A stretch of DNA of 63,365 nt, filler included, from Folioceros fuciformis (taxonomy: Eukaryota), in NCBI GenBank assembly GCA_049999805.1. It is 7 parts of 7 records of this genome, joined end to end, with 100 filler letters (N's around TTAATTAATTAA, not from the genome) between each part and the next. Parts side by side here need not be neighbours in the genome. Positions count along the whole stretch, not along the records: positions 31,204 to 48,623 come from JBNGIO010006076.1; 6 more parts are not named here. The stretch is one strand, 5' to 3'. Below, piece by piece: positions 31,450-60,699 of this stretch. A program made the position numbers and the translations under genes. Positions within the stretch are counted from its first letter, which is position 1; each line of letters opens with the position of its first letter. The notes under the pieces are model-generated. The model ran no database searches. It was not told the DNA's origin and was given only the letters and a program-made list of their open reading frames with translations.

Positions 31450-32167
31450 CATCTAGTCCTGCTGAGGGGAGGGGAACTGTAATGTGGTCCATGCATGGCG
31501 GGGAACTGTCGAGGTCTTTGATAGCTATCTGTTCTGTGTTTCCTTTCCAATAACGTCAGCCGTGGGCTATGCCACGAGGCCATGTTTGGTTCATGAACGG
31601 CTTCATGGGGAAATCATTCTGGAACTCACTGTTGAAAGGTGGTCATGAAAGGGGGCTAGTGTCGTGGAATGCGTGTTTGGTATGTCTAAGATGATTGACT
31701 TGGGTGTGCAGATGTGTACCAAGACGGTTTAAACAAGCATTGAAACTCATGGATGAGAGGAAAAAACTGAATAAGCACATGTCTAAAGAGTATACAGAGC
31801 CACATAAGTATATGTTGTTGTGCATTGATGGCATGGACCAAAAGAAGACTACGTTGCCACACATTCTTAGATGGCCAAAGGAATTGAAGGAGGATAGCAA
31901 AATTAATGTACACGTCGTGGGGTGTATGGTTCACAACTACAAATTCAAGGCAAGGACATACCTACATTATGCCAATATACCAAACGATGCCAATTTGACT
32001 ATATGCATTATTTAGGATATCATTCACACATACGAGGGGCTACTTCCACAGGTTTTAGACATTTAGCTAGACATTTAGTTGGATTTCTTCTTGTAAGCCA
32101 TACACATGACCAAGTAGACCAAATGTTCTCTTGTTTCTCCAAGCATTTGAGGCACAAAGAGATGAAG
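31450..32167 (+). mobile_element. DUF7869/Sola-like DNA transposase remnant, copy 1
   Basis: LLCIDGMDQKKTTLPH, HVVGCMVH, DANLTI, FLLVSHTHDQVDQMFSCFS. Superfamily assignment is tentative. Confidence 0.65.
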
Positions 32168-36330: not shown

Positions 36331-36768
36331 CATAGAACTCAAGGCTGGACACTGGGGGAAGTCTGAGGGAGTATCAAAACCCCAAGGCTGGGGAACGCAC
36401 AAGGCTTAGAGCTAGGCTGGAGTTTGATGAGCGGGTGCCACATCAGGAGGGTGTTGAATACAGCGTGAGTATCCCAGACTGCATGCAGGCGCTTGGAGCA
36501 GAGACTAGTCAGGAATGTTTGGAAGGAACACAGGCAAAGGGTGCCCCTGCGGCTCAGCAAGGTGAAGAGAATTCTACAAGGGACGAGTTGCATGAAGGGG
36601 GTAGGGTGGCTGAGGAAGGTGACACCGGGGTATCACCGGTTGTGTGGAGAAACATAGGGAAGTCAACCTCAGGTTGGAGCAGGGCCTAGGAAGTCGCTGG
36701 AGAAGTACTCCGTCGGTGTGGAAAGGATGGACAGGTGGGAGATCCTTCAGTTTTGGCGGCAACAACAA

Positions 36769-39700
36769 TGATGAATTGAGGAAAAGATGTTGTGGTCATT
36801 GATTTTATTTCGGAAAAGAGAGAGTATCTGTTGTATGATGAATGGGCTACATCTAGCATCTTGAGGAGTTCAGTCTATCGAAGAGACACGACCGTTCAGC
36901 TAATAAGTCACGACTGTTCAGGTCTCGATCGTTTGCGGCTTACACACTGCACTACTGCGCACACACCCCCTTAAGCTCAAGCGTCGAGATAGGGGAACTA
37001 CTAACAATCTGTAAGTCCTAATGCGGAAGTAAACTGAGCATGCTTAATCTTCGCAAGTGGCTTGGTGAAGATATCAGCCACCTGTTCCTCGGTTGGTACA
37101 TACGTTAAGCGCACTTCGTTACTCTCAACTTTGGAACGCAGAAAATGGTATCTGAGCTCAATGTGTTTTGAGCGCTCGTGAAATCTCAGATCCTTGGATA
37201 GAGAGATCGTAGCTTGATTGTCACAACGCAGCTCGATTGGTCCTTGATGTGGATAGCCAAGGTCAGTCAGCAGTTGGACTAACCACAAACCTTCCTTGGC
37301 GGCAGAGGCGGCAGAAATGTATTCCGATTCTGCAAAGCTGAGAGCTATAGAAGTTTGTTTCTTTGCTTTCCAACTGATTGCTCCACCGGCGAGTAAGAAA
37401 ACGTAGCCACTTGTGGACCTACGAGAATCAAGGTCGCCGGCCCAGTCTGCATCAGTCCAGCCAATCAGTTTGTCTTGAGCTCCTGGGCCACCATGGTATT
37501 TAATACCCTTCTTCTTCGTACCTTGTAGGTATCGGAGGATACATTTTACAACAACCCAGTGAGGTAGACCAGCATTTGAAAGGAATTGGGAAGTCAATGA
37601 AGTTGGTAAGGCTATGTCCGGTCGAGTATTTTGTACGAGATGCTGGAGACTACCCACAGCTCCTGAATAGGGGACAGAGCTCATTTCTTCTACTTCTGCA
37701 GGAGTTTGAGGGCACAATGTTTTGCTAAGTCGAGGACCTGTCTGCATTGGAGTGTCAGCAGGTTTGCAGTTTGACATGTTGAATTTATCAAGTACATCCA
37801 GAATGTAGCGCTCCTGGTGTAGTAAAATGCTCTCTTGAGTTGGGTTATACTTCACTTGAACACCCAAGCAGAACTGCATAATTCCGTTGTCTGTCATAGA
37901 GAATTGCTGCATAAGTTCAGCTTTAGATTCTGCCAAGTATTTCTTATTATTGGATATCATAATAACATCGTCTACATAGATGCCCATCATCAGCATTCGA
38001 GAATCTATGTTTCTGATGAATACACTGGCGTCCACATTACTCTTGGTGTATCCTAACCTTCTGAGGGATCTGTAACATTCTTCGTACCACTCCTTACCAG
38101 ATTGTTTAAGGCCGTACAAGGTTTTGTGAAGCTTACAGACCAAGTGTTCTTTGCCAGGTGCAATGTACCCATTCGGCTGTTGGATGTATATCTCTTCCTG
38201 GAGTATTCCATTTAAGAACGCAGTTTGCACGTCCAGCTGATGAACGTGAAGGTTTTGCAAAGCTGCCAAGGCTAACATAAGGCGAAGTGATGTTAGTTTC
38301 ACGACTGGAGTGTATACCCTGTCTTCATAATAATCGATTCCATCCCTTTGAGTGAAACCCCGGGCAACGAATCGGGCCTTCAGTGTCGAGACTTGGCCAT
38401 CGGCATTGTACTTTTTGCGTAATACCCATTTGCTACCCACAGCATGGCGTCCCGGGGGTAAAGGTACAAGGCTCCATGTGTTGTTGTTGACCAAGGATTG
38501 ATATTCGCTATCCATGGCCTTTCTCCAAGCTGCTGCTTCAGGTCCAGCTAGGGCTTCATCGGTTGGAACTATGTTAGGTCGATCAGCCGTATCACCTGCT
38601 AAACCGCGTGTTGTGCGAAATTCCAAGTCATGGAATTTGGTGCCGGGAATTCCCTTTGTGGTCCTTGAAGAGTTGCGGACAGGGGGGTTAGGAACTGGTG
38701 TATTTCGCTCCAGAGGGGCGTCCTCCTGATTCGTTCCTGTTGCAAGTTGGCGTGAAGGGAATTGCAAATCAGGTGTATTGGTTTCACTACCAGTCTCGCT
38801 ACTCGCTCCCCCTGTGAGCTGCAATGGAGGGAACGCCTGTGTAGAGGCTAACGGTGAAGTCATAGCGGAACCGCCGGGGGGTAAAGGCGGAATGGAACCA
38901 AAGGGAGGATCTATGGGCCAATCCGGACCGGGGTCATCATCCGGGGTAGGAGCAGCCGGTGGTGGGAGCGGAGGCATGGGTGGTGCCAAGGCTGCAGATG
39001 GAGAGGGATCCGGGGCGGGAGGGGCCGGGGTGGTAGCAGGGAGAAAATCCAGGGCAGAGATGCGCTCGAAATCTGGGGCACCCCCTGAAGGGAAAAGGAG
39101 GGCTGCTTCATCAAAGATGACATTTCTGCCCAAGGTAACCCTGCGAGTGGCTCTGTCAAGTAGTCGGTAACCTTTCACCCCGTCACTTTCGCCATAGCCA
39201 ATGAAAGTAAGTCTCACAGATCGGTGATCTAATTTTCGACGCCCTTCCGTTGGAATATGTTTGTAAGCCGGACAACCAAAGATGCGAAGGTGGCTGACCT
39301 GTGGCTTTCTACCTGTCCAGATTTCATAAGGCGTCTTGTCTGGTAGGGTGGAGGTGCCACATCGGTTTTGTACATAGCAAGCAGTTGCCGCAGCGTCAGC
39401 CCACAAGACGTTGGGTAGAGCGGCTGTGGCAAGAGAGCTCCTAGTGGCCTCCATAAGAGAGCGATGTCTTCTTTCCGCTTTGCCTAATTGGGCATGGGCA
39501 TATGGCACGATTTTTTGGTGCAAAATACCATGGGTGGATAGATAGGCCTCGAACGCAGGAGAAGTAAGTTCGCCTGCGTTGTCAGTTCTAAGAATTTTGA
39601 TGAGCTTCCCAGTCTAGTTTTCCACTAACGCTTTATAGATCTGGAAGGAGGCAAAGGCTTCTGACTTGTGCCGTAGAAAGGACAGAAATGTGTAATGACT

Positions 39701-41845
39701 GAAATCATCCAAGAGGACGAACAGGTGTAGTTTGCCTGTGAGGGATTCTGTTTGCATAGGGCCACACAAGTCAGCATGTACGAGTTCAAGAATACTAGTG
39801 GTAGTGCTCACTGATCTAGGGTAAGGTTGAGTATGCTGCTTGCCTAGCAAGCAACCTTCACATAAGGGTAGATCACTGGAAAATTTTTCAAGGAGACCTT
39901 CGACCATATGTGTAGCTTGCATACGTTTTATTCCTTGGAAGTGTAAGTGGGCGAGTCGTAGGTGCCAGAGTCTAGCAGATAGATTGTGGTTCAGATTGGC
40001 AGTGAGGCTTACACTCGTTGGTTGGGCAGGTGTAGAAATCCCGATGCCCAATGGAAACAATCCCCCTGTACGAGGACACTGTATACATCTTGTGTGGCCA
40101 TCTGAGGTAGTTGTATGGATCAGACATCCATACTAGTTAAAGGTAACTTGGGAGTTGGGGTTACTGACGATTTGATTCACAGAAAGTAGGTTTTTGGATA
40201 ATCCAGGAACATGTAGGACGTTTCTAACATGAGCAGTGAGGTCTTGTATTTGTATTTGGATGGTACCCTGACCCACAGCCATATGAGTAGAATCATCACC
40301 CATGAGAACAGGTAGGGGTACTTCCAGAGTAGAATATTCAGAAAACCAATCCTTTCTTGGTGTCATATGTTCAGTGGCCCCAGAGTCAAGGAGCCAAGTA
40401 TCTGGGAGTATGGAGCTGGTAGCCAAGGCAGAGGTGGCAGTAAAGAGGTAAGTATTTTTGGAACTTGTGGCTAAGGCAGATGTGCTAGGGGTACTCCCTT
40501 GGGAATTAAATATTCCAGCAGCTCTGTCACGCTGCCTTTTTCTGCATTCTGGGGCTATATGCCCTTTCTTAGAGCAGTAATGACAAATTTTATCCTTATG
40601 ATTAGGATTTGAAGATGGTGGGCGATACAGTGCAGAATTCCTAGGTCCAGCTTTGAATCTAGGAGCTCTTCGTCCACCAGCAAATAGAACTGAAGGAGGA
40701 GAATGTGAATTGTCTCCTACAATCAAGACTTCCTCATTGCGAATTTTTAGTAAGAGGCTTGGTAAAGTCAAAGGTGCTGCTGCAGTAGCCTGACTGGCTT
40801 GTGTAGAAACGAAAGATCTCCATGATTTAGGGAGGGCCATGAGTAGTTGGGTAACCTGTTGTTCTTCTTTCAAGTTGAGTCCCGTGGAAATGGCTTCATC
40901 TAATGTCCTTTCCCAGGTTTCCAGGAATTCAGAGACTGAAGCGCCCTCCTTGAGCTTGATGGAGGCTAGTTTTTGAGCAGCAAGCAGTTGAGAAGGTAAA
41001 CTTACCTCCTGAAGAGATGATGTTAGTTTATCCCATAATAGTTTTGCAGTCGATTGTCGTTTGACAGTCGGCAAAATCCTATCTCCGATGTGAAGGATGA
41101 GCTTTGCGTGGGCAGAGGCATCCTTCATAATCCATGCAGCTTCGTCTGCATGCCCTATGGGTGGTCTAGGTTCTGTGCCATCTACTACAGACCATAACGC
41201 TAGTCTTTTAAGGAGGGATTCTACCCATATTGACCATGTGGCATAATTTAGATGTGTAAGTTTCTCTATAAGATAATTTCTTGCTTGTGTAGCAGAGAGG
41301 CTTGAGGATCCCATCCTAAAAGGGGAGGAGACCTTACAGGTCTAACACGTGAATAATGCCTGAGTAATCATGATGTATGATGTGCTTTCTTGATTGTAGT
41401 ATGAAGTCAAAATCATCATCTCTGATTGCAGTTTGCTGTAATTTGTACAGGTTGGGTTCTACATCTTTGCAACGCTGATAAGAGAAGTGTGGGACTTGAA
41501 ATGTATATACAAATCGCTTCAGCGAATTTGTATCCTGCATCTTAAGTTTGTGATTTTGTCCTGAGAGGTTATGAAACCTATGTATTCTACAGGATTGGTA
41601 TAATGGATTGTGGGTCTCCATTAGAGAGAATCATCTGCTCTGATACCAAGTGATGAATTGAGGAAAAGATGTTGTGGTCATTGATTTTATTGCGGAAAAG
41701 AGAGAGTATCTGTTGTATGATGAATGGGCTACATCTAGCATCTTGAGGAGTTCAGTCTATCGAAGAGACACGACCGTTCAGCTAATAAGTCACGACTGTT
41801 CAGGTCTCGATCGGTTGCAGCTTACACACTGCACTACTGCGCACA
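36769..41845 (-). mobile_element. Full-length Ty1-copia retrotransposon C
   Basis: 195-bp LTRs at 41651-41845 and 36769-36963 (TG...CA, 3 mismatches). PBS TGGTATCAGAGC at 41637-41648, PPT at 36964-36972, flanked by ACAA on both sides. Confidence 0.97.
37001..41314 (-). pseudogene. Copia C gag-pol polyprotein (single frame, two premature TAG stops)
   Basis: ORFs 41314, 40060 and 39523 share a frame: UBN2 gag, CHYCSKKGHIAPEC, WLLDSGAT, LWHLRLAH, HADLCGP, LRTDNAGE, YVDD, DADWAGD, RNase H. Stops at 40133 and 39614. Confidence 0.95.
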
Positions 41846-44800
41846 ACAACAGCCTTCTCAAGAGGTGTTGGGCACCTATCCTAACTGGGAACGATCCGTC
41901 CGTCTTGCTTCCGACACTAAAGAGGAATGGAACGGGGAGGTTGAGGCGGAGATCCAACTTGCTGGAGGAGCCGGAGCCCTGGACCAGACATAGCGAATCC
42001 GGTCATGGCTCAGGGCTCAGTTGGGTGAAGGACCACGTGACCCATCACTGAGGAACAATGTGGCTTCTCGGTTGGAAGCTGGTCCACAATCTGGGCAGGA
42101 TGTTGATATGGACCCCCCAGGGGTATGCTCATAGTACGAAGCCTCCCACGTCCCTAGAGGCGGGGTGGGAGAGAAGTGGAGGCTGCCTGGGCTCAGGGGA
42201 AATGTTCTGCGAGGGCGCCCTAGGTGCCTTTGGCTTGGCATCTATAGCTAGGGGTGAAGAGGACCTACGTGTGGGGTCTGCTGCAGGGGGTGGTTGGTAT
42301 GGACGGGAGATTCAGGGCGATCAGCTAGTATCCAGAGCCAGCGAGGTCCATGTCGAGTCCTTTCAGGGAGGGGCGGCGTCTTTGCCTGATAGCGTCCCTG
42401 CTAACCACAGGGCGTCCGATGGGAAGAAACCTGAGGAGATGGAGGCACTGGACACAATTGGGCAGGTCATGGAGGTCCTGACAAAGCAATTCATGGCAGT
42501 GTTCATGGCTCAGATGGATGAAGAATCATGCGACTCTTCTATGCTGAACATCACGGGTGCGGGTTGGGAAGTTGGTGCACAATCAAAGCTCGAAGTTGCT
42601 AAGGATCCCTCAGGGGTTTTCTTGCAGGGTGCTTCCTCCCTGCTCCTGGAGGCGGGGCTAGAGCAGGGTGGAGTCTGTCATGACACCTGTGGCAGGTTTT
42701 GCGAGAGTGGCCAAGGTGCCGCTGGTTTGGATGCTTCAGCTGGGGGAGAAGAGATCTCGCCTATAGAGCCTGGGGCAAGGAATCATCGATCTGGCCCGGG
42801 GCTCCAGGATGAGCAGCTAGTCCCCAGCGCCAACGGGGTCCAAGTCGGGGCTTTTCAAGGTGACATGATGGATTCGATAGGAAACTCCACCATCAAGCAC
42901 CTGGCGAATGAGGAGATGGATGTTGATGCGACGGGATATTGTTTGCCCACAGGAACATAAACTTTCTGTGGAGCATATCCAGAGAGTGAAGAAGGTTTTC
43001 CTTCCAGGAAGTACAGAGTGGGTGGCAGCCAGAGTAGAAGATGTAAACAATGGGGAACATTCTACTCAGCGAGTTTCAGCAACCCGGGGAGGCGTGTCTG
43101 TTATTGTTCACCCAGAACACACTCACAATATCTTGGAGATGGGTCACGATGAAGGTGGAAGGTTTGTGTGGCTGGTGATGCAAACACCCCAAGGCCCACT
43201 TGGCATATGTAACATCTATGCTCCCAATGCTGCCACCGATAGGAGCAATCTCTGGTGTAGGTTGGGGGAACATCTGGATGAGCAGATCTTGTGGATGCTG
43301 GTTGGGGATTTCAACTTTGTTGAAAGACGGGAAGATATCCGGGGGGAAAGCCCTGTAGATATTCGGTCGGTGCCTATGTTTTGGCAGGAACTAAGAGATA
43401 CCCTTTTGGCTGTTCAGGACCCATGGTTAGCCCTTCTCAGCACATCGTCAACCGCAATCCTTGAAGTTCAGCTGGACTAACCAACAACAGCAGAATTTGG
43501 GAGAGCGCAGTCTGGACAGGTTCTATGTTCCTTCCGGGTGGTTGGCCTATGTGCAGGCGTACAGTATTCTCGCTGGTACGATCCTATTGGACCATCATCT
43601 AATTAGCTTGCACTTGAGGCTTGCGCCGAACTCGGGGCGGCAAAGGAGGCATATGCAAAACTTTCGGATGAACACGTTCTTGCTCGAGGAAAAGGGGTTG
43701 TTCGAGGAGGTCAAAAACATCTGGTAGGGAATAGAACAGGGGGAAGAGCCTGATGTTTCCCAATTGATATGCGCTAATAATGAAGCAACTAGATACTTGA
43801 GGAGGCGGGGGGTCCAACGGGTGAAGGAGTTGCATCAACGAGAATGCTTTTGGAGAGAGGAACTAAGCTGGTTGCAAAGGAAAGGGGAGGAGCGAGACTT
43901 CACAATCGAGGAAGAAGCCTGGAAAACGGAGGTACAATGCGCATTGGCCAAGTTGGAAGAAGATAGAGCTAGAGGTTGGTTTAAATAAGCTAAGGTCAAG
44001 TGGGTGAGGGAAGGGGACAGCCCGTCTAAGTTCTTCTTCGATAAAGTGGCTGCTAACCAGTATAGCTCGAGACTTCCTACTCTTCTAGACGCCCAAGGAG
44101 TGATGCAAGAGTCGTTGGAAGGTTTAAAAAAGCACGTTACCCTCTTCTTTGTGGGTATTTTCTCGAGTGTGGGGAAGGTGGAGGGTGGGGAATAGCTGTG
44201 GTCAGCTTCCTACAGATCACTCTCGGCTAAGGTGTCCGAGGCCCAACGCAGGGCGCTGGATAAGCCGATTATAGCTGAGGAAGTACTCCAGGCTCTGAAG
44301 GGGATGCCAAGGAATAAATCCCAAGGGCACGATGGTATCCCGCTCGAGTTCCTGCTTTGGGGTTGGGAGTTTATGGAACCTTTATTCATGGAGGCTATGG
44401 CCATAATCTGGGAAGAGGGCAGCATGGGGAGTTGGTTTTTAACATGGGGGTCATCACCCTGCTCCCTAAGTAGGACACTCTATCAATCTCCAATTGGCCC
44501 CCAATCACCCTGCTTATAACTACATACAAGGTGATAGCCAAGGTACTGGCCAACCGCATCAAGCCTTTTATGGACGATTGGATTGAGAAAGAGCAGAGAG
44601 GGCTCATCCAAAACCGATGCATTCTGGACAACCTTCTACTCTTGCGGGAAGCTAAGTATAATGTCCAGGTTTAGAAGAAAGCTATAGCTTTTATCTCCTT
44701 GGACTTTTGCAAGGCGTATGATTCCATTGAGTGGCACTTTTTGTGGAGATGCTTGCGTAGCCTTGGGTTCGGGAATAACTTCTGTAGGTGGATTGCCATT

Positions 44801-47429
44801 TTGTGTGAAGATGCAGGAGCCAAGGTGGCCATCAATGGATCTCATACGGAGCGTTTTGGCATTCATCGGCTGGTACGTCAGGGGTGCCCCCTAGCTCCTT
44901 TTTTATTTATTATCGTGACTGACTTCTTCCTTCGGGCAGTTAAGCAAGACCACGCAGTCGAGGGTGTTCGCAATCCGGATGGATCGCAATTAAGGGTTTC
45001 AACGTTTGCAGATGATACCCTTCTTTTTTGCTCGGCAGAGGAGACCTCTTTGAATGCTTTGCTCTGGCAGGTCGAGGTTTTTGGGGAGCTGTCGGGTTGC
45101 AAGGTTAATTGGGGGAAGACCCGCATGATGTGTCTACACACGGAAGGGGTGCTACCTCAATGCATCCACCATATTCTGAGGGTGTTGCAAGGGTCCACTC
45201 ACAAGTATCTAGGTCTTCCCTTCCATGAAGGGAATGAGAACGGTGAGATAGGGAAGTATGTGTTCCTCATATTCATTCGTAAAGCGGCGAGCTTGCAGAT
45301 GTTGGAACTTAACCTAGCAGGAAGGTTGGTGGTGATTAACCATATCCTAACAGCCTCTCTTTGGTATTATTTGTGCTTATGGGCCCCCTCCAAGGCAGAG
45401 GTGAAATGGTTGCAACAGGTGTTGACCTCATTCTTGTGGAAACGTGCGGGGGACAACTCAGCGGGGTGCTCTAAGGTGGCTTGGCATCACATTATTTAGG
45501 CACGATGGTTGGGAGGCCTAGGGGTGGTTGATCAGGTTGCCAAGATGAAAGTCTTGCTTGCTCAGTGGGTTATCAGGGCAGCGAACCCTACCTACTACCC
45601 TTGGAAAAGTCTGCTAACACAGCATCTAGAGTGCACGCAAGCTGTTCCTCGGAGAAGGAGATCTATTGCCAACATTCTTGCAGACAAGCCTTTACTTGAT
45701 ACTGCACAGTGCTCCCCACTCTTCAAGTCAATCTGGAGCAGCTACTTAGAAGTCAAGCGGTACATTACCCCAGGTAACCCCATGCATGTGGATGACGTTA
45801 TGGGAGTGCCTTTGCAAGGATTCTCGAGACTGTGGGCTCAAGAATTTAGGGCCAGGGTGTATCGGTCACAAATCTTCGGTTTGGCGTGTCAGAAAAGAGT
45901 TATCCAACTTGGTCACTCATGGAACAGATTAGAGGCCCGTTGAAAAGAGGTGGCGGAGGGCAAGGAAGAATTTGGTTTAGTGGCTAGACATGTTAGGCTC
46001 ATTTTTTCATGGTTGCAAGAGGGACTAGAGGATAAGGTTCAACAGGTTTTAAGGCAACAACCTACCCTAGACGTTGAGGGGTGGTATACGTACTCCATGG
46101 GTAGTAAGGATGCAGATTCTGAGGAGAATGAATAAGAGGATGACCTAGAATTGGATAGGGCTATTTGGCTTTCAGGTACGGCTGACAAAGAAAACCTTCG
46201 GACATTCAAGGTTATTTCGCCTGAAGGACTTTTGGAAAGTCAAGGCAGGAACGATGGTGATGTCCAAAGAGGGGAACTAATGGCCATCACGGTCCTCTCT
46301 AAGTCTGGTCGTGCAGGGCGATGGCTCACTCAACTCGAAGGCCCTAGTGGACAACCACCCTCGGACAAACCAGTTGTCCGATGTTGGTTCCAGCTTGCGG
46401 AGAACTGGGATTTGGCATTCAGACCAGATCTCTACAAATGGCCCAGGTGTCCAGGGTGCAAGGCGGATAGTCTTCGATCGTTCTTCAACTTCCCAACGGC
46501 CGACATATTCCTCTGGCTGGTGCGAGCGCAGAAAATCAGACAAAGGCAACCAATGGCTCCCTGGCTACAACTCTCTGTGCAGCGACAAAAGGAAACTATC
46601 AAGCTACTTTGGAAGTCAGACGGAATTCCCCCCAAGGTTAGGACAACGGTTTTGTGGTTTTTTTAAGCTTGTTTGCCTAATGCGGATAGATGGGATGGGT
46701 TGTAGGTTGCTACGGGAGAAGACCAGTGTCGACTATGCTCCTTGGGTGCTCCAAAAAAAAGTCAGCACATGTTCTTCCACTGCAGCTTTGCCCAGGAGAT
46801 ATGGAGTGAGGTAGGTGGGCAGGTGGTTGCACATAATTCTTTCCGGCACCAACCTCAGGATCACGAAACAAACTACCCTCTTTTGGTTGGATGCAACCTC
46901 GGACAAAGCTCTACTTCCGTCACAATGGTGGGGTTTACTGTGGTCTTCTTGTCTTTTCCACCTTTGGGTCAACTGGTCTTCCGTGGTCTATGGAGGTTCG
47001 GTGTTAGCCTCATCTAAGCCTTTGCTATGGCGCATCTGGGAGCACTTATTGATTGCAGCCGAAGGTCTGAGGCAATCCCATCGGAAACGATTCAAGTGGA
47101 GGGAGTGAAAGTCGGCGGGTTTCCTAGTTCCTGGTAATGAAGAACATTGGAATCATGTTTGCCCTTGGGGTAGGTGAGTTCCCATGGTCTTCGAGTAAAG
47201 TTGAGGTTTAAAGCTAAATGGATTTGGTAGGCGAATGGTCTTAGCAGTCTGCTAGGGTCAAGGTGATAAGGAGTTTTTTTTGCGTCTTGTCCTGTGGTTT
47301 GGGCATGAGGTCGGTTTTTACTCCTGGTCATGGTACTCATGCTTTGTAAATACGTGAGCAGGGTCCTCTTAGTACTGCAAGAGGATGATCATCTTAATGA
47401 GAATTATTTTCTTTGCGAATTTTTTTTTG

Positions 47430-47960
47430 GCGTCGTTTCATATATTAGCATAATGTAGGTATGTCCTTGCCATGAATTTGTGGTTGTGAACCATACACCC
47501 CACAACGTGTACAATTTTGTTGTCCTCCTTCAATTCCTTTGGCCATCTAAGAATGTGCGGCAATGCAGTCTTCTTTTGGTCCATGCCATCAATGCGCAAC
47601 TACATATACTTGTGTGGCTTTGTATACCCTTTTGACCTATGCTTGTTCAATTTTTTCCTCTCATCCATGAGTTTCACTCAATGCTTGTTTAAAGCAGATT
47701 GGTACACTTCTGCACACCCAAGACAATCATCTTAGGCATACCAAGCACATATTCCACAACACTAGTCCTCTTTCATGACCACCTTTCAATAGTGAGTTCC
47801 TAAACAATTTCCCCACGAATCCGTTCATGAATCAAACACGGCCCCGTGGAGTAGCCCATGGTTGACATTGTTAGGAAGGAAACATAGAACAAGCAGCTGT
47901 CAAAGACCTTGAAATGCTGGCACCATCAATGCACAACATTGTAGGGCATCGGCTTATCGG
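47430..47960 (-). mobile_element. DUF7869/Sola-like transposase remnant, copy 2
   Basis: Reverse-complement nucleotide homolog of about 31490-31990, including the IDGMDQKKT region. Confidence 0.7.
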
Positions 47961-48289
47961 TTGCATCGGTGTCAACTCACACGAGTGGTGTAAGTACCAT
48001 TCAACTATAAAAGACTGCACGCGACCGATAGTTCCGCGGTATGAAAACCTAGATCATTCATACCACCTTTTGTTCGGGTTTATAGTGCACATCATTTTCA
48101 AAGGTTGAGCTGGAATACGTGAAGCACTTCACTTTGGAAGACATCACGAAGTTCCAGCCAATATTTGATAACATCGTAAGCATGCTAACCCCAATGTGAT
48201 ATTATGTGTGATGGGTGCACACTTGGGCGCGCCACATCCTAAGCGTGAACGCATTGTCTGAATGTTGTGTAGACCCTTCGAGAGGCCGA

Positions 48290-48623
48290 GGAATACAAGG
48301 AGAAGGTTATTCTTGACACCGTCAAAGAGCATGTCAATGCAGCTTGGAATTGGAAGCGAGTCGAGGGCTTGCATCGAAAATTAGCGGAAGAGGACAACGA
48401 TGCAAAACTATCGACATTTCATGTCCCTAATAGCAAACAAAAGATGAAGTACCAGGTTATAAATGGTGATCTCTCAGAGAAATGGCTGCATACTTGGGCA
48501 AGCGAGAATACAAGCTGCTAATATTAGACATGCCAAAAGGGAACTACAAAAGAACCCTAGGACAAGGAGTTTACAACAAATGACCTGGAGAAAGTAATGG
48601 AGGGTTTTTCAAAGTCATCGAGT
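48290..48623 (+). pseudogene. DNA amino-methyltransferase-like pseudogene, paralog 2 (N-terminal part; cut by gap)
   Basis: Manual translation KLAEEDNDAKLSTFHVPNSKQKMKYQVINGDLSE / MAAYLGKREYKLLILDMPKG / TTKEP*DKEFTTNDLEKVMEGFSKS aligns with the 50400-50645 translation. Confidence 0.65.
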
Positions 48624-48723
48624 NNNNNNNNNNNNNNNNNNNNNNNNNNNNNNNNNNNNNNNNNNNNTTAATTAATTAANNNNNNNNNNNNNNNNNNNNN
48701 NNNNNNNNNNNNNNNNNNNNNNN

Positions 48724-49735
48724 CTTCATCACCAGCTCCGTCATGCTGGGTCGATCTCCAGGACTCTGCTCGAGGCATTGAACTGCCATATCGGCCACAA
48801 AGCGCATAGAGTTCCTGCTGTTTACATCCATTCTATATTGGTGCCTCAGCGGTGCATCGAGAACCTGATCTATTTCGTCATGCTTGGTCGCCTGCACTGC
48901 TGGCACCACATTGCTCCCCTCCAATCCTATGGGAGGCTTTGCAGTGAGCAGCTCCATCAGCACTACCCCGAAGGCGTACACATCGCTCTTAGCCGTGAGC
49001 TTGCCGGTGATGAAAGTCTCTGGATCCATGTAACCTGGGGTGCCGGCGGACGCTGTGCTCACATGAGTTGCAGCCAGGGCGGCCGTTCTTGAAATGCCAA
49101 AATCTGCCACCTTCGCATCTAGGTTGTCGTCCAACAGAATATTGGCAGACTTGACGTCGCGGTGTATAATCTGTGGATTGGCCCGAGAATGAAGGTACGC
49201 AATCGCATCCGCTGTCTGGAAGGCGATGGTGAGCCTCCTCTCCCATGTCAGTCCGCCACCTTGGCGCCTTTTGCCCCGCAGATGCTCCTCGAGTGTTCCT
49301 TGTGATACAAACTCGAACACCAGGGCCGCCAAGTTCGGGGTGAGGCAACATCCCAACAGCAGCACGAGCCCGCGGTAATTCACTTGCGCGAGAATGCGCA
49401 CCTCGTTCAGGAATTGGGGTTTGTGCGCCTCAGATCCAACCCGCTTGCTCAACTTGATGGCCACCTCGTGGCCGTCTGAGAGCGTGCCCCTGTACACCGT
49501 GCCTAACCCTCCAACTCCAATCTTGTTGCTTTCAGAAAAATTCCGAGTGGCCTGGCGCAGTACGCTTACAGACATTGTAGTCACATTTATCCCCTCCTGA
49601 ATTGCTGCCGTCAGGTCCTGGTCTGTAGTTTCCAATCTGGCCGCCTTGATCCGTGAACGGCACACAGCAAACACGGAGACTGCGATCACGACAGCAAGGG
49701 ATCCCGCCACAGCCGCCGCCACCACGGTCGTAACT
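48724..49735 (-). CDS. Receptor-like Ser/Thr kinase (WAK/LRK10L-like), TM + kinase exon; ectodomain not seen
   Basis: TM helix, IGVGGLGTVYRG, VAIK, HRDVKSANILLD, DFG, GTPGYMDPE, SDVYAFGVVL, DRPSMTE. Acceptor-like ccttcaacag lies just upstream. Confidence 0.9.
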
Positions 49736-49916
49736 GTTGAAGGAAAGGAAGACAGTTTTGTCGCTCGTCAGACCGAAGGACCCGGACTGACCGGAAAAGT
49801 GTGACACTTTTCAGGAAGCAAAACAGATGTACCTGAAGCATACTGAAGATGACCACCTTTTGAAGTTCCAAACAGCCTTTGCAAAAGTGGTATGTTTTTT
49901 TTGTTGTTTTCCTTCC

Positions 49917-50240
49917 CACTAGTGCATTGTTTATTGAACTGGAGTGCGCCGGTCTACCGGCGCACTCTAGCCTGCTCGAGCAGCAGTGCGCCGGTCGATC
50001 GGCGCACTGGAGCCGGGTCTGACCCCAGGGTGCCGGTAGACCGCCGCCCTCTTGCCTGGTGCGCTAAGTCTACCAACGCACTGCTACCAGCTCGGGCTCC
50101 AGTGCGTCGGTAGACCTGTGCACTCAGGCAGCCGGCTTGAGCTCCAGTGCGCCGGTCTACCGGCTTGAGCTCCAGTGCGCCGGTAGACCGGCGCACTCCC
50201 GTCAGCTCAGACCCCAGTGCGCCGGTCTTCCGGCGCACTC
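49917..50240 (+). repeat. Transposon terminus CACTAGTG with array of about 7 palindromic subterminal repeats
   Basis: Perfect hairpin GAGTGCGCCGGT-CT-ACCGGCGCACTC at 49942-49967, with variants near 49985, 50030, 50101, 50146, 50174 and 50216. Confidence 0.75.
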
Positions 50241-50303
50241 CTGTCTACTCAGGTTAAAGTGGCCATATCGGTAGCCACAGTAATGAGTACTATTCTGGTT
50301 GCA

Positions 50304-51509
50304 GAAACTTGGAGATATAACAGACTTGGAGTCATTGCTGAAGGCATTTTAGGATTTTGTATATTCGGCAAAAAACTGAAAAAAGAATGAAAGAAGAGAA
50401 GCAAAAGCTGGCGGCTGCTGATATGGATGCAAGGTTATCGGACTTCTGAGTTCCAGCGAGTAACAAAAAGGTGAAATATTAAGTTATTCAAAGGAATATT
50501 CTGGAAATGAAGGCCTTTCTTGTCAAACGCCCCTATACGCTGCTATTTGCAGACTTGCCTCGAGGATTACAGCGGCATGAGTATGACAAGCAGATGAATG
50601 TAGCAGAGTTGGATGAAATGATTCGAGGGTTCAACAAATGCACATTGAGTAATATTTTTAGAGTTATTCTAATGCATGGAGTTGATTTCATATTGGAAGC
50701 AAGGGAGGCACTACGACCATGGTGCAAGAAGGGGAGAATATAGACATTGGTATGGGAGAAGACTAACATACCCCCAAACGTAGGAGCAGTGGAAACAGTT
50801 GAATATGTGACTATTGGAAGTGCAATGCAAATAGAGGCTCAGGAATCGAAGGCTCCACATTTTGCGAATTAAGGATTTCTCTTACCACGAGTGATAAGGC
50901 ATGATGTGGTGGTGAAGAAGCACCTTTTCCATTCTGAAGATGCGCATTCATCTCTCCTTACCTGAAACCATTAGGTTTGATGAGTATGCTCATAAATATG
51001 TTTTCTTGTGAAGGGGACTAGGTGGTTGATGCATGCGCAGGCTCGGATCTCTTCTCCAAAGTGCAATTCAACATGGAAGGCATGCGGTGGCAATCGATGT
51101 GGACGTGAGGTGCACTCCATATATTATGTAGCGGATTATCGGGCTAGGGTCTTTGCCTGACGTTGATGAGGAGATTACGACAAAGTCGTTTACACAAGGC
51201 CCATCAAAGTTTTGGGCGAAGCAAGTGTGCGGGGATGGCAGCGTTGATTGCAAAATGCTGGTGTTCAGTATATTGGGCAAGAAAGGAGAGGTGATATCCC
51301 AGATTGATGATAGGCCAGCAGAGGACCTTTACACCATCACCATTTGGGATGAGAATAGTACTTTGCTGCCCCAAACTACAGAGGACCCCAACTTTAAGGT
51401 ACTACGTGTTGGTGGTGATGACTTTGGCGATACGGATGCACAACGACTGAGAGATTTAGATGTAGTTGTGTATTCCGAGGCCAACCAGGATGACCTAGTT
51501 TTTGTATGA
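50304..51509 (+). pseudogene. Beta-class DNA N4-cytosine/N6-adenine methyltransferase-like pseudogene, paralog 1
   Basis: Manual translation across stops and frameshifts: VIQRNILEM...YTLLFADLPRG...LVWEKTNIPP...VEYVTIG...PYLKPLGLMSMLINMFSCEGD*VVDACAGS/GSLLQSAIQHGRHAVAIDVD. Motif order matches the N6_N4_Mtase family. Confidence 0.8.
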
Positions 51510-51802
51510 GACTCTTGTACTTAACTTGAACATGAAGTATTTTGAATAGCTTATGCACCGAGTGATCGGCACACCATATGTTTCAGTTGCCAAATATCAA
51601 GTTTCGCATAGAAGACTCACAATGTTTACTGCATCTATTTTGGTTTTATTGATATTTGTTGAATAAATAATATATGCACACATGTCGGTGGCCTTTTTTA
51701 TTTGTGACAAGAGATCTAAGCGTATATAGAGCGCAGATCAAGACAAATTTTAAAACCCAAAATGGGCTTTGTAGAATCCGCCGATCTGGGTTAGACCTTG
51801 TT

Positions 51803-52048
51803 TCATTCTACCATATCCGGGCCCTGGCTAGAGGTACCCGACGACAATGAGCCCGACTTGTTGGAGCCCAGTAATAAAGGGTTTAATTCTACCATATCCG
51901 GGCCCTGGCTAGAGTTACCCGACGACAATGAGCCCGACTTGTTGGAGCCCAGTAATACAGGCGCTCCGTCGTGCTCCTTAAACGTTAGGCCAGGTTTGGG
52001 CCGGTAGGAACTCAGCTGCTGTCCCAGCTTCATCACCAGCTCCGTCAT
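51803..52048 (-). CDS. C-terminal tail of the receptor-like kinase, with an internal 81-bp (27-aa) duplication
   Basis: Begins with the same 21 nt (MTELVMK) at which the kinase at 48724 is cut. LLGSNKSGSLSSG.SSQGPDMVE occurs twice. Confidence 0.75.
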   Translation of the reverse strand: MTELVMKLGQQLSSYRPKPGLTFKEHDGAPVLLGSNKSGSLSSGNSSQGPDMVELNPLLLGSNKSGSLSSGTSSQGPDMVE

Positions 52049-55000
52049 NNNNNNNNNNNNNNNNNNNNNNNNNNNNNNNNNNNNNNNNNNNNTTAATTAA
52101 TTAANNNNNNNNNNNNNNNNNNNNNNNNNNNNNNNNNNNNNNNNNNNNTCTGCCTACTACTGTATGACTCCATATACCAATTGACGCTGTCTGTCGTGGT
52201 GTGGGACCACTGACCGGGCCCGGGCCAGAGGTAGAGCTTCGCATTCCTCGTCCCTGTAATATGCCAGACCTGATTCATCAAAGTGCGGAGCCCCGTTTTC
52301 TCATCCATCACGTCCAGCAAGTGGAGGACGTGGCAGATCTCCTGCAATTGAACGTGTTCAGGATGAAGTCAAAAATTTGTGGAGATGCCTGAGGTGATCA
52401 TGGCGGCATAAGCTGGCTACCTGCAATTGCATGTAGAGTGTCACAACAGTAGGTATTGGAGAAAGGTTAAAGATGAAAGGAACTCGAGCCCGTCTCGACA
52501 TACCTTGCCGAGCAAGCATATGTGCCACTCGTTGCTGGCGTCGGCATCGAGTTCCTTGGACCGCGAACTCATCCAGAGAGTAATCGGGTTGCACGAGGAT
52601 GCCCTCACCGACCACCTCCATGCCCTCCGATCTTCGGCAAGCACGAAGTGATTTTCTGGATGTCCAAACCAAATTAAGAAAGCAAGCATGACTTGACATC
52701 AGCATCAGCGTTTCACACATCACATGCCAGCATCGATCTCCCCTGCCTGAACTCAAATCTGGGCTCAACCAAAAGGAGCTGTGAGCCTCATCCAAGAGCG
52801 CACCTATTGTGGTTGCAATCCTTTAGAGGCAAGCCGGAGAGACACCTGTACGCGTGTAAACACATCCACGGGGCCAAACAGAGAAAGGTGAGAAGCAAAA
52901 GCTCGAGCTGCACTATTCTTGCCAAGTAAAGATATCGGCTGACTGACGCCGACTCTCTCCGACCTTGCCATCCGCCGGATCCAAGGGCTCAACCAGAGAA
53001 GCTCTCAAAGTGATAAGCTTGTTCTGGTCATTGGAAGGCCGTGGCGCGAAGCAGGATGCAGGTACATTCAAGTGCACGCGCGAGCAACGTCACACACATG
53101 TACAGGTTCAATCACATACGTCACAAGCACATAAGCCATGCCTGGAGCTCCAGCTGGGCTGCAACAGTTTTTGCCCAGCACAGAAAACGTATTCACGTGT
53201 GCAGACACGCATAAGGGTCGCAGTTAAGCAAGCTTTTTCAGCAGGGCAGGGCAACGCGCCTGCAAGCACAAGCGCTAGCACCGATCTCATGCATTGGACA
53301 TGTATGTCACAGACTTAAGCGCGCACGCACGCGCACATGAACTCCGAAACAGTCGATCTCAAACGCAAGCGAGTCAGAACCACACAAACGGAACTCCGAG
53401 AATGTCCACCTCTTACAAACACGCAGAGCACACAAATGATACTCCGAAAGAGCAGAACAGAGAGCAGCATCCAGAGCACCCACAGCAACTCCAAGAAAAC
53501 GCCAAAAGCGCGCATCCAGAAACTTGGGAAACTTGCAACCGAATAGAGGAGAAATGGAGGCTTGCCTTCCTGGGAACCACGCTGGCTAGCGCTGCAACGT
53601 TCGTGACGACGCTCAAGTTTTCTCTCGACGGCATTCTCCCAAACTCGTTGAGGAAGTGGTCAAAGTCCATGAGCTCCCAACAATGAGAGCTTGAGACCTT
53701 GAGCGTTCCCAGCGTCCATGAATCCTGGCGTTCCCTGCGTGCTCCGAGTGGTAGGCTTTATCACTGACAACGAAGTTCTTCGTCAACGATAAGGCCCACG
53801 ACTTGGAGCACGCAGGGTTGGCTGTAGCTAACGAGGAAGGGGCTGTGCGCCTCCACCTCCTCATCCTCCTCGCCCACCTTCCTCTTCCACTTCCTCTCCT
53901 GATCCGCATGCTCCGCCGCCTCTCTGGCCTCCTCCCACAACCTCACCTCATCCGTCATGGCTCTCCCGGTGCGAGAGAAGGAGGAAGCTGGAACCAAGGC
54001 GAAAACCCGAGGGGCAAGGGGAGGGTAGAGCCCCGTCCTCCGATCCGGGAGGCGTCCGGGCCGGAACAGATGGACGCCGGGGCCCCGGGCCCACGGCCCC
54101 ACGCGACTCGCTCCTCTGCGGTCGTGGTCCCGCAACGGCCAGCAAGAAACTGTGTGAAAGCCCCTGACGGTCGGGGACCCAGCTCCGGGGACCCTGCAAT
54201 GTGGGCGCCGCCGTTGCTCGCGTCTTTTATCAGCCAATTAACGGAGCCTGTACCACTTCCCGTCCGTCGATGACATCGTCAATCCAGGGCTGGCATTGGG
54301 TCACAGGGTATCAACAGGTTCCTTCATGGCTTCCTCCCGATACGGCCAGAGGCCAGTGGCCAACGGGAAAATGAGATGCCCTAATAGAGCGAGAAAGACA
54401 CGCACCTGTCACGGACCACCAGCATTCACCTCTTAATCACCGACGGTCTGACTCCAACGGCGACAGGTCCTTCGCCTTGTGAGGGCATCAAGCAAGGAGA
54501 GTACACCTTACCGTCCACGAGGCAAGCTTGCCCCTTTCGTTGAATTGGAAGCAAGGCCCGTTTCGTTATGCACAGCTGGAGCTTGTGCAGCCAGATTGCT
54601 ATGCACATAGTAGAGGAGTCGTACATGTTACAGGACGAACTGCGTTGCGCTAAGGTTTGATGCCCATCATCTGAATCAGCTGCGGGACCATCGCGATCAG
54701 CTGTTACCAGTATGCTTCACCATAAACATCACCAGGAGGCGACGGCCTTGCGTTCAACCAACTCAATCTCAATGAGCCGGATATAGCTGTAAGCTTTGTA
54801 CCGTACACTACTGCAAGCCGCTGAGGCCTGTAAGCTTCCCCATTTCTGGTGGGGAGAAGTATAGAGCATATCACGCTTCAAAGGCAGGATGCAGGAACGC
54901 CCGTCTTAATCCAGGAGGCCACGAACCTGTCACGAATGTGGCAGTGATGCCACTCCCTGAGAAGGAAAAGAAAGATTTGCGCTGTGGGCTTGTTGACCCT

Positions 55001-56813: not shown

Positions 56814-59800
56814 TGTAAAAAGGCTTGAGGAAGCTGTGTGCAGGTTTGCAGAACATAAAAATATTAAGAACAAACATACAACATATATAGTCAGAGTACT
56901 ATCAGAGTATTATTTACTCGCGACCCTTCATAAACTTAAACCTAAATTAACAGCGTGTACATATTAACTATAGATAAAGGGGCTTTTATCTTAACACACC
57001 CCCTTAAGAACACGCCTGTTACTGCTACGCTTAGGAGACTGCTCCAATGACTGAAACACTGCTCTTGCTGTTGTCAATCTGCACCTTGGCCATAGCCGCA
57101 TATCTATTACATGTGCACGTCTGCGCGGAACAGAAGAGGAGAGACAAGAAACAGAATGCAGCAGCTGGAGGAAGAGGCTGGAGGGAATATGCAGCAGAAT
57201 ATCGTGTGGCCTTCATAGAAAGGGAGTACAAACTGCGCGTTGCGGTGACGCACAGAAGAACCCAGCTAGCACATGTAGGAGAAGAACCAGCCAGAGCGTG
57301 TGTGAAGGATCTGTAGAGTCAGATGGCAGAGGCAAAGCAAGTCCCGCTGCCAGCTGAAGAGCAACAACAAGTATGGCGATTAGATAGCACACTGAAGCTG
57401 CATCCGCGGTAACCTGTTGCTGTAGCTGTGGAAAAGCATCATCAGACACAGAGGGAAAGAGTCGAGAGACTACTAGACTGAGTGCCTAGAGACTGAAGAG
57501 ATTAGGAAGAAGAGGAAGGTGGAGAAGCACTAGGGTGATCCACTAACCCCATTTGTTCTAAATGAAAGGTATGCTTCGAAGTAGGCAATGCCTTTGTAAG
57601 TAAATCTGCAACATTTAATTCTGTGGACACATGCTCAATCTTGACCACTTGCCTCTCGACAGAATGACGCACGAAATGGTGCTGAATCTCTATGTGTTTG
57701 GTACGAGCGTGAAAGTGGGGATTCCCAACAAGTGCAATTGTGGACTGATTATCGCAGCAGATAGTGGTAGGGTTGGGGCTGTGCAACATGAAGACTGGCC
57801 AAGAAGCTGTGGACATAGCTTCAGCCTCATCATCATCCTTGGGTGAATGCTCAGAGGTAAGCCTTAATCCAACATTTCCGGGAGTACTGACTGATCGTGC
57901 ACTGTCCAAATTGAAACGCCGTAGGGTTTCATTAATGTATTTGGCCTGGTGCAGAACCAGGGTTTTATTATGTCTGTCACGCCACAGCTGAACTCCCAGG
58001 ACAAATGTAAGTGTCCCGATGTCCTTCATGTCATACTGCTTGTGTAGCATTCGTTTGGCCCAGTCCAACAGCTCACGATTGTCAGATGCCAAGATAGCAT
58101 CATCAACGTAGAGAGTGAGCAGGTGTCCGCCAGTCAGCTGCTGCATAAGGTACCTCGGCCCATTGATTTCTAGGTCTGTGCCTCGTGGGGGTACCTACGT
58201 TCAAGTTCAGTAGAAATAACAGGCTCTTCTTGTGGATCTGAATGTACATCAGTAGAAACTGTGGAGACGGGCAGAATATCATCATCCGGAAAAACAACGG
58301 GAACAGGAATCCCTTGATCATAAGAAGCAACGGCCGCAGGACGAGCATCGGCAATAGCAGCATCACTAGAAAGATCAACATGTGCAGGAACAGGACTGTC
58401 AGCAGTAGCAGATTCGGTGATATCACCCCCTCAAGCTGCAATCGGCTGATCCTGAGGGTAGACAGAAAGCTCATAGGCATCCGAATCATCCAAGTCATCA
58501 GGGATACTAGTCGAAGGAGAAGGAGCATCCAGAAAATGGGGCTGAGCAGGCTGCCAAAGTTCCTTAAACGTGACACTGCGAGCAAGAATGGATTTGTGCG
58601 CAAGAGGATCATAAAGCTTATAAGCTTTAGCTTCCTCCCCATAGCCGACAAAGACCAAGGGCTTGGCTCTGTCTTGCAACTTACGACGGAGCGCGGAGGG
58701 AACATATGCATATGCAGGCGAGCCAAAAATGCGAAGATGCAAAATACTCGGCTTCCTACCCCACATGAGCTCATAAGGTGTCGTCTCAACGACAGCAAAG
58801 GTAATCAACCGGTTGAGGATGTACGTTGCAGTGACAACAGCCTCCGCCCAGTAAGCTTTGCCTAAACCAGACCATGCAATCATGCTTCGTGTCATGCCAA
58901 GTAGAGTCTGATTGCGGCATTCCGCAACCCCGTTTTGTTGCTGGGTATATGGAACAATAAGCTACCTGATAATGCCTTGTGATGACAGGAACTGGTCGAA
59001 AGAGGTATTTACGAACTCAGTGCCATTATCAGAACACAAGCAACGCAGCAATCGACCAGTCCGCTTGTGAACCATAGTCACCCATTCCTGGAATAAGGGG
59101 AAGGTGTCAAATTTAGACTTCATAGGAAAGGTCCAGGAATAGCGACTGTAGTCATCAGTCAGTGTGAGGTAGTAAGAAGCTCCTCCTAGCGAGGAGACAT
59201 GAATTCTGCCAGAAATATCATCATGCACCAAGTTGAGAACATTCGTAGTCCTGTAGGCGGGAACAGCTGGGAAAGGCAACTCTTTTTGTTTTGCAACGAC
59301 ACATGCATCACACAGAGGGAGTTCCTTAAAACACTTCGGCAAAGGTTCACGGTAGCAATCCATATAAGACATCTTTACCAACTTCTGTTTGTTAGCATGT
59401 CCAAAACGGGCATGCCATAACTGTGCTTGAGCAGCCATTGATTTCTCTGCTATAAACAGCTTAGGAGGACGGCAACAAACCACATGGAGTCTGTACAGAT
59501 CATTAAAACGCACCCCCTTTGCCACAACGTGGGTAGATGAACCTTTTATGGTAAGTACACAACCCGTGGATGTGAACAGCAGATCAAAACGGCGAAGACT
59601 CATAAGCTGGCTTACTGATATTAAATGCTTGGCCATGGCAGGTACAAAAAGCACATGCTCGAGATACAGCATACTGTTATCAACAAGTCGGAAAGCACAC
59701 GTACCGGTGCCAAGGATCTTCAAGCCTGTGTGAGAATGCTCATCACCTAACAGCACTCTTTCAGCTGTGGAGGTTGAGGTGAAATTACTCATTAAAGCTT

Positions 59801-59814
59801 TATCCTTGCATATG
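56814..59814 (-). mobile_element. Ty1-copia D, internally deleted (pre-integrase, integrase, partial RT, RNase H; 3' LTR 56814-56996)
   Basis: LWHARFGH, CDACVVAK, VHDDISG, SDNGTEF, YWAEAV, LYVDD, CDNQS, HARTKHIEIQHHF, NVADLLTKAL. PPT at 56997-57005 followed by LTR with TG...CA ends. Confidence 0.92.
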
Positions 59815-60699
59815 NNNNNNNNNNNNNNNNNNNNNNNNNNNNNNNNNNNNNNNNNNNNTTAATTAATTAANNNNNNNNNNNNNNNNNNNNNNNNNNNNNN
59901 NNNNNNNNNNNNNNCAACTCGCAGAGGCCGTCCTCTTCAGCAGAGGCGGACCGTGAATGAACGCAACGAGACGGAACAGAACCACTGAACTACCCGAGTC
60001 CACGCTTGGTGGTGCAACGGAAGGAAAGGGGCAAGGGGAAACGACACCGACGGAGGGAAGGGGCCAGGTGGAGGTCCGGGGAAGCCTATATGTCATCAGG
60101 GCAGGAGCCATCTCCCCTTGGAGATTCAACCTCTGCCTCTCGACTATCTGGAAATTTAGAAGGGACATGAGTTCTATATATCGCCGGTTGGTTGGTTAGC
60201 TGTGGTAGCTTTTGACGCTTCCTGCGGTCGGGGGAAATCCTGAATGCCACTGCTCGCAATCTGGCACGGGTAGATATGCGTTTGCCGACCACAACATCGG
60301 CCGTATATCATTGCTGGAATCTACGTTTGTTTCCGCCTCTGATTCTCTTCCGAGAGGAGGTGTGCTATATATGGATTGAACCGCAACTTTCACTACAAAA
60401 AGAGAATGTGTGCTGTACAGAAAGGAGAGAAGCGATCATCCATGTGTACGGCCTGACGTCGGGCGATTCTTCCCAATCGAGCATTGATTTACTGTGGAAT
60501 TGCGAGTTGCCTGGCAATTTTGACAAGGGGCAGCTTGCAAGTTGCCGCTCTACACGGCCTCCTTGGTAGGGGGCTGTATTAGAGCTTGGTTAAGACATAT
60601 TCGATACTACACTGGAAGGCGAGTACTGTGGGCCTCTGAGTTTGAAGCCACGGTCCGCAGCGAGAAACGCTGACTCAGAGCGATCATGTTCCCAGCAAG

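Follow-up and report, generated by a model that had tools for sequence, protein, structure and literature searches.

DUF7869 and beta-class methyltransferase-like gene remnants in the Folioceros fuciformis genome and the linkage of their relatives in metagenome contigs

Gene remnants and their surroundings in the window

The window, that is the whole stretch of 63,365 nucleotides of Folioceros fuciformis DNA analysed here, is a chain of separate contigs held together by six identical artificial linkers, N44-TTAATTAATTAA-N44, at positions 20943-21042, 31104-31203, 48624-48723, 52049-52148, 59815-59914 and 61990-62089; other N runs are a plain N100 at 10080-10179 and an N10 at 26572-26581. Since the linkers lie between contigs, proximity across them within the window carries no meaning. 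Comparison of the long open reading frames with Pfam revealed PPR repeats, a receptor-type kinase, copia-type retrotransposons and LINE reverse transcriptases, which mark the DNA as coming from a plant-like nuclear genome. Apparent host genes are found at 16836-19456 and 21798-23600, namely a minus-strand set of EMC1 N-terminal beta-propeller pieces and a plus-strand PPR-repeat gene. A LINE reverse transcriptase is found at 1692-2453 and further copia fragments at 57505-59813 and 62091-63365. The piece that concerns us most is 31204-48623, which is free of N and contains a copia element (37004-41341, minus strand), a LINE (about 42-47 kb, plus strand) and, at its right end, both a fragment of a DUF7869 gene and a fragment of a methylase-like gene, here called copy A. 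A census of the window with hidden Markov models (HMMs) gave exactly two DUF7869 sites and two methylase-like sites.

The DUF7869 (transposase-like) gene fragment next to copy A lies at 47427..47912 on the minus strand and retains about 100 of at least 672 codons, with three in-frame stops and both ends missing. At the protein level 47432-47725 aligns with residues 132-230 of a relative 672 codons long, and the peptide IDGMDQKKT is encoded at 47567-47593 inside the fragment on the same strand. It is detected by tblastn with relatives P0010, P0011 and P0014 and with the open reading frame (ORF) of metagenome contig L006 (E 6.5e-21 to 3e-22) and by our own DUF7869 HMM (E 9.7e-28); when queried as a 53-residue piece it has no match in Pfam. 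The second, longer fragment is located at 31509..32161 on the plus strand and spans residues ~153-313 of this relative, interrupted by stops and by an internal loss. This one matches PF25273 in two frames, with E-values of 1.6e-8 (34.8 bits) and 6.3e-9 (36.1 bits) against a cut-off of 26, and is found by tblastn with DUF7869 relatives at E ~1e-32. The 47.4-kb fragment is 86.5% identical at the nucleotide level to 31509-31993 in inverted orientation, and the two window fragments are 51-55% identical to their relatives, in which the blocks ...DGMDQ..., ...LQLDN... and ...GHTHDQIDQ... are conserved.

DUF7869 (PF25273) is listed in Pfam as a domain of unknown function, and a full-text search of the literature found no paper naming it. 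Its closest clusters in the Atlas comprise DUF7869 proteins from Streptophyta and Mollusca. A PDB sequence search with the protein and its profile gave no meaningful match, and the fold prediction has a mean pLDDT of 34.0, too low for fold reading. Conserved acidic blocks, the multi-copy state and the presence of decayed copies suggest that DUF7869 may be a transposase.

As a separate observation, the two DUF7869 fragments form inverted arms that are 81-91% complementary, with their common outer boundaries pointing outwards, and these arms (31509-47912) enclose 15.4 kb with the copia element and the LINE. Either a deletion derivative inserted twice or a single large composite could account for them. 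A window-wide search for an inverted counterpart of the fragment's terminal 24-mer gave no site beyond the two already known; the flanks read ...AACTG and AATG..., in which no clear target duplication can be made out.

Copy A, at 48273..48623 on the plus strand, corresponds to the N-terminal ~116 codons, out of roughly 375-450, of a beta-class (N6_N4) DNA-methyltransferase-like gene and has DMPKG at the position of motif IV. It ends at 48623 because the contig ends there and the N run starts. Two frameshifts, near 48470 and 48575, divide it into segments at 48273-~48470, ~48473-48574 and ~48576-48623. As it stands the reading frame has three stops, and all 116 codons become open once 2 nt at 48470 and 1 nt at 48575 are removed. 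The commoner variant contigs (depth 37-44) are without the 2 nt at 48470 and without the 1 nt at 48575; they keep the copy-A frame open, and thus better-preserved copies of the copy-A type exist in the genome.

Copy B, a near full-length methyltransferase-like pseudogene at 50366..51185 on the plus strand, is located in another piece (48724-52048), and the artificial linker 48624-48723 stands between the two copies. It has in-frame stops and one frameshift, and its open frame runs on to 51506. The N-terminal half contains DLPRGL at the motif IV position at about 50.55 kb, and the C-terminal half contains ...YLKP... followed by ...DACAGS/GS... at motif I, at about 51.03 kb. Our own methylase HMM matches copy B with E-values of 9.5e-32, 2e-8 and 2.7e-8. 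An intact reading frame is absent from copy A and copy B alike. When the two are aligned, the breaks being filled with X, they agree at 35 of 86 residues (41%); the Smith-Waterman score is 163, as against 28 +/- 4.6 for 300 shuffles (maximum 51), and tblastn inside the window relates them at E 1e-5 to 1e-6. Comparison at the nucleotide level found no similarity between them, and they are therefore old paralogs.

Identity of the methylase-like family

When copy B was searched with phmmer against 1.84 billion representatives, eight proteins were recovered at E<=1e-3, of which P0001 was the best (E 3.4e-10). PF01555 (N6_N4_Mtase) is present in the C-terminal half of three of the seven relatives scanned with Pfam (P0001, P0003 and P0004), and above cut-off also in the ORFs of metagenome contigs L001 and L003. 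The C-terminal half of copy B was itself found by tblastn with the proteins of these relatives. Its C-terminal piece of 32 residues reaches PF01555 at E 3.6e-4 and 21 bits, under the 26.7-bit cut-off, and the N-terminal pieces of copies A and B gave no match in Pfam. Judged from sequence, the window copies belong to PF01555 by transitive homology only.

Positions 48-290 of the family profile align end to end with residues 32-278 of 8urk_A (E 6.4e-8), and the profile also matches M.RsrI, MboIIA, CcrM and N4-cytosine enzymes; NCBIfam adds weak CcrM-type matches only. In copy B, DLPRGL stands before ...DACAGS/GS, which places the motif IV region N-terminally and the SAM-binding motif I C-terminally; copy A is cut upstream of motif I. 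The same order, motif IV region first and motif I last, characterizes the beta-class N6-adenine/N4-cytosine methyltransferases (PF01555; 8urk_A, M.RsrI 1eg2, CcrM 6pbd), and like them the family has ...QKP... and D-x-C-x-G-[ST]-G blocks. The genes differ from those of the beta-class enzymes named here in being eukaryotic with predicted spliceosomal introns, and the window copies differ further in being pseudogenes.

The consensus of the beta-class catalytic tetrapeptide is (D/N/S)-P-P-(Y/F/W), and both window copies depart from it, with DLPR in copy B and DMPK in copy A. In the profile alignment DLPRGL of the family falls on DPPYGL of 8urk_A. Among the 33 family proteins in which the motif IV region was located, 26 have D[IV]PYGF, five DLPRGL, and one each YIPYGF and DIPFGF; most members of the family therefore have D[IV]PY, unlike the DPPY of beta-class enzymes, and DLPR is the form of the clade to which the window copies belong. 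In the phylogenetic tree copy B groups with this DLPRG clade with 98/97 support and on a long branch, and the D[IV]PYG clade is its sister. The gene is thus rightly described as methyltransferase-like, although its catalytic tetrapeptide is non-canonical. The family to which it belongs is a rare one and has no name: when 5.8 billion (5.8e9) proteins were searched with its profile, 45 clusters were recovered at E<=1e-5, none of them with a real name, and the nearest Atlas clusters are all PF01555.

A preliminary description of this DNA had called the two genes MTase-like and DUF7869. Both names stand, the former with PF01555 in the relatives and the end-to-end profile match to 8urk_A, the latter with the 31.5-kb paralog above the Pfam cut-off; both series of peptides quoted there for the MTase-like paralogs are present in the sequence.

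Linkage of the two genes in metagenome contigs

Metagenome contigs were scanned with four proteins of the DLPRG clade, which yielded six contigs (L001-L006) of 2.2-5.0 kb from one metagenome, all belonging to the D[IV]PYG clade, the sister of the clade of copy B. Every one of the six has an intact methylase-like frame. Two of them, L001 and L004, are uninformative about the neighbouring gene, since the contig stops 528 and 524 bases past the methylase match, before a DUF7869 gene could start. In all four informative contigs (L002, L003, L005 and L006) a DUF7869 gene lies directly downstream on the opposite strand, so that the two genes are arranged tail to tail; in L002 about 320 bp separate their stop codons. 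These DUF7869 genes are up to 75% identical to P0014, and the one in L006 is nearly complete. Among the metagenome copies dN is 0.10-0.34 and synonymous sites are mostly saturated; where dN/dS could be calculated it is 0.03-0.13 for the methylase-like gene, 0.08-0.11 for DUF7869 and 0.06 for ORF1, a frame described below. Such low ratios at saturated synonymous divergence indicate that the layout has been kept under selection for a long time.

Scanning of genome contigs with the DLPRG-clade alignment gave one ordinary bacterial methylase (L007), and the same scan of viral contigs found nothing. The metagenome contigs end before any terminus. The longest contig is 6091 nt for P0041 (methylase) and for P0013 (DUF7869) alike, which is a hint only.

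Upstream of the methylase frame the metagenome relatives have two more conserved frames, ORF0 and ORF1. Conserved donors of the GAG|GTAA type and ...CAG| acceptors, all in phase 0, connect ORF0, ORF1 and the methylase frame into one large predicted gene in L001-L005 (e.g. L003, 138-4565). Conserved phase-0 introns of this kind indicate that the genes are eukaryotic and that the protein extends well beyond the methylase domain, which forms its end. ORF0 has no match in Pfam. In one of six members ORF1 reaches HTH_ParB at E 8.6e-4, under the cut-off. Spo0J is matched by ORF1 at E 0.45, and its structure prediction has a mean pLDDT of 39.4, too low for fold reading; an identification of ORF1 as ParB was set aside because the signals are too weak. 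Short tandem repeats are seen in the predicted introns.

The junction in the window and its interpretation

Between the end of the DUF7869 repeat at 47912 and the start of methylase homology at 48273 lies a spacer of 360 bp (47913..48272) without detectable homology, which also gave no match to the ORF1, ORF0 and DUF7869 N-terminal profiles. The preliminary description had placed a methylase-like copy on the plus strand near a minus-strand DUF7869 fragment of the same contig, and this holds, with the 360-bp gap inside an N-free piece. It had further proposed that transposase and methylase may be the two genes of one element family. At the level of the family this fits the four informative metagenome contigs out of four and the purifying selection on them, in the sister clade of the window copies; the adjacency in the window is no repeated feature internal to an element, as the layout is divergent, the junction is single-copy and other copies diverge at 47912. 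The two genes of the window are head to head, whereas those of the metagenome loci are tail to tail, and a head-to-head layout across a unique 360-bp spacer argues against one preserved two-gene unit. Remnants of ORF0 and ORF1 were sought in the window, with ORF1 HMMs and by tblastn with ORF0, ORF1 and the DUF7869 N-terminus, and none were found.

Copy number was judged from contig depth, summed over the contigs of two sequencing runs that contain a given stretch. Single-copy stretches have a depth of about 10-12, and the depth rises up to 223 over the DUF7869 core and to 40-105 over 48264-48623, which indicates several genomic copies of both parts. The spacer at 48020-48263 has a depth of about 12 and is single-copy. 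The two methylase-like copies in one window had also been taken as a sign of family expansion; they sit on separate concatenated contigs and are weak evidence for this, although the depth does show that several genomic copies exist. The boundaries of the repeated parts are informative as well. Three DUF7869 copies have a common boundary at 47912/31509: similarity to the 31.5-kb copy is lost at 47912, the base at which a third genomic copy also departs. In 141 bases these two copies show 24 and 13 differences, respectively. Another copy continues with coding sequence at 47427, which makes that end of the fragment a truncation. From the common end at 47912 and the truncation at 47427 it follows that the 47.4-kb fragment is a bounded repeat unit and that the methylase piece lies outside it.

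These data bear directly on the idea that genes of the DLPRG clade are arranged head to head and that 47427-48623 is the decayed centre of one copy of a single element with another layout. The fragments are merely 360 bp apart, and the clade of the window is other than the clade of the known layout. In addition, the spacer contains a speculative upstream exon, an open frame at ~48083-48175 followed by a GT..AG interval (48176-48272) in phase with 48273, which would stretch the methylase gene towards the DUF7869 fragment; its signals are a GTAAGC donor at 48176 and a TGTGTAG acceptor ending at 48272, about where relatives have an intron, and this exon and intron are a candidate read from the bases of the spacer, without homology support. 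Such an element would, however, have to hold at least 131 N-terminal codons of DUF7869 plus the upstream part of the methylase gene in 548 bp (47726-48272). With a single-copy spacer between repeated flanks, and two other DUF7869 copies diverging at 47912, we consider a single element of this layout distinctly unlikely.

A chimeric join of repeats during assembly would also produce a junction of this kind, and the window is indeed a chain of short contigs in which both flanks of the junction are repeated. Yet error-free contigs of the two runs (47566-47799, 47771-48012 and 47987-48312) tile the junction at even single-copy depth, although these runs may be the source data of the assembly and are then not independent of it. 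An assembly artefact is accordingly very improbable.

Another possibility is that the two fragments met by chance in a transposon graveyard, the methylase pseudogenes being derived from a horizontally acquired or host family unrelated to DUF7869. The copia element and the LINE in piece 31204-48623 are in keeping with such nesting, as is an orientation unlike that of the known unit. No DUF7869 remnant was found on the 3.3-kb contig of copy B and no methylase remnant beside the 31.5-kb DUF7869 fragment, so that adjacency is seen for just one of the two methylase copies and one of the two DUF7869 fragments. In a simulation in which two fragments of each kind were placed randomly in 63 kb, adjacency within 360 bp arose in 4.5% of cases, which is not negligible. 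What speaks against chance is the behaviour of the families elsewhere: the methylase family amounts to the 45 clusters mentioned above among 5.8e9 proteins, and both rare families nevertheless adjoin in all four informative independent contigs, across saturated synonymous divergence. An explanation by chance nesting is thus unlikely.

The reading we prefer, with a probability of roughly 0.6, is that the window holds non-functional debris of a mobile-element family that pairs a DUF7869 gene with a beta-class methyltransferase-like gene, and that the adjacency in the window is scrambled rather than the canonical unit. In intact members of this family, a DUF7869 (transposase-like) gene would be accompanied by a gene whose terminal domain is beta-class DNA-methyltransferase-like and of bacterial/phage type. 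At the window locus both genes are dead, and the junction would represent the meeting of two separately truncated pieces, either from neighbouring or nested copies or through rearrangement. The transposase role of DUF7869, mobility of the unit and the role of the methylase-like protein are what we infer beyond the homologies, decay, copy number, linkage and purifying selection described above. Our best guess for the role of the methylase-like protein is that in intact elements it would bind or mark the DNA or chromatin of the element itself and so control how active the element is. Methylation is probably retained in the D[IV]PYG clade, and the DLPRG clade, which includes the window copies and has lost the catalytic aromatic residue, is probably altered or inactive as an enzyme.

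Several points weigh against this preferred reading. The linkage is seen in the D[IV]PYG clade only, and copy B belongs to the sister DLPRG clade. The six loci come from one metagenome and may represent gene clusters conserved among several related organisms, not mobile copies. Copy B has no DUF7869 remnant on its contig, nor has the 31.5-kb DUF7869 fragment a methylase remnant near it. DUF7869 is a putative transposase, as neither Pfam nor the search for solved structures assigned it a function. Finally, termini, target-site duplications and empty sites were sought, and none were found.

DNA methyltransferase genes in mobile elements have precedents. Eukaryotic retrotransposons carry C5 DNMTs, according to the available part of PMC5890265, and Dam-like adenine methyltransferases, according to that of bioRxiv 10.64898/2026.05.21.726589. 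The DUF7869 unit would resemble these as selfish DNA in which selection maintains a DNA methyltransferase gene of prokaryotic type; as far as the available text goes, the retrotransposon systems have a Dam or C5 enzyme inside a polyprotein, whereas the DUF7869 unit has no reverse transcriptase, a DUF7869 partner and a beta-class N6_N4 domain. In the accessible text of Bao and Jurka (2013; PMC3627910), virus-borne Mariner elements encode a transposase, an endonuclease and a methyltransferase, and methyltransferases in transposons are stated to have been unreported until then. The likeness is that of a DNA transposon with an extra methyltransferase gene; the Mariner systems, as presented there, differ in their transposase superfamily, their Methyltransf_26 / C5 methylases, their location in giant-virus genomes and the restriction-type nuclease alongside.

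A further comparison is offered by Sola, judged from the same accessible text, as a little-known type of eukaryotic element whose transposase is large and which can take up passenger genes (Fanzor in Sola2); Sola2 has 4-bp AT-rich target duplications and short terminal inverted repeats (PMC3627910). A look-up of short motifs in the supplements of PMC3627910 and PMC3985635, made to tie DUF7869 to Sola, gave no matching Sola sequence among the files searched. The part of Iyer et al. (PMC4738411) available to us lists several clades of prokaryote-derived adenine methylases found in eukaryotes, among them some that have ParB-type domains or that lie near transposons. Within the partial texts covered, our literature search found no description of a beta-class N6_N4 methylase-like gene paired with DUF7869, and none of the papers listed for N6_N4_Mtase together with transposable elements deals with such an element by title or abstract start.

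Beyond the preferred reading, we offer tentatively, and at somewhat less than even odds, a wider model. Streptophyte-associated genomes may hold undescribed DNA-transposon-like elements composed of a DUF7869 transposase and a large multi-exon gene whose last exon encodes a beta-class methyltransferase domain of phage/bacterial type. Proteins of the D[IV]PYG clade would place 6mA or 4mC marks in or near the element and thereby steer its chromatin state, and in the DLPRG clade, with the window copies, a dead enzyme would have turned into a DNA- or SAM-binding regulator. Mobile elements that bear a methylase have been described among retrotransposons and in a few virus-borne Mariner elements, and they are studied as selfish DNA that manipulates host epigenetic marks. 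A conserved pairing of DUF7869 with a beta-class N6/N4 methylase-like gene would add a case of the DNA-transposon type and, if true, an undescribed class that is the counterpart of the methylase-bearing retrotransposons, and it would supply a genomic context for DUF7869. Two clades in which the catalytic aromatic residue is kept or lost would form a natural pair for testing the use of the methylase to the element. The window copies themselves are dead, and their importance is limited to pointing at the family.

The 3.3-kb contig that contains copy B (48724-52048) has a further peculiarity, in that its two ends have an identical sequence of 21 bases. Across the end-to-end join runs the frame of a minus-strand gene for a receptor-type kinase (PK domain, E 1.4e-47), and past this join the C-terminal tail of the kinase contains an 81-bp tandem repeat (51800-51961). 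The identical ends and the kinase reading across the join make the contig look like a circular or collapsed tandem unit, the content of which would be the kinase and the copy-B pseudogene.
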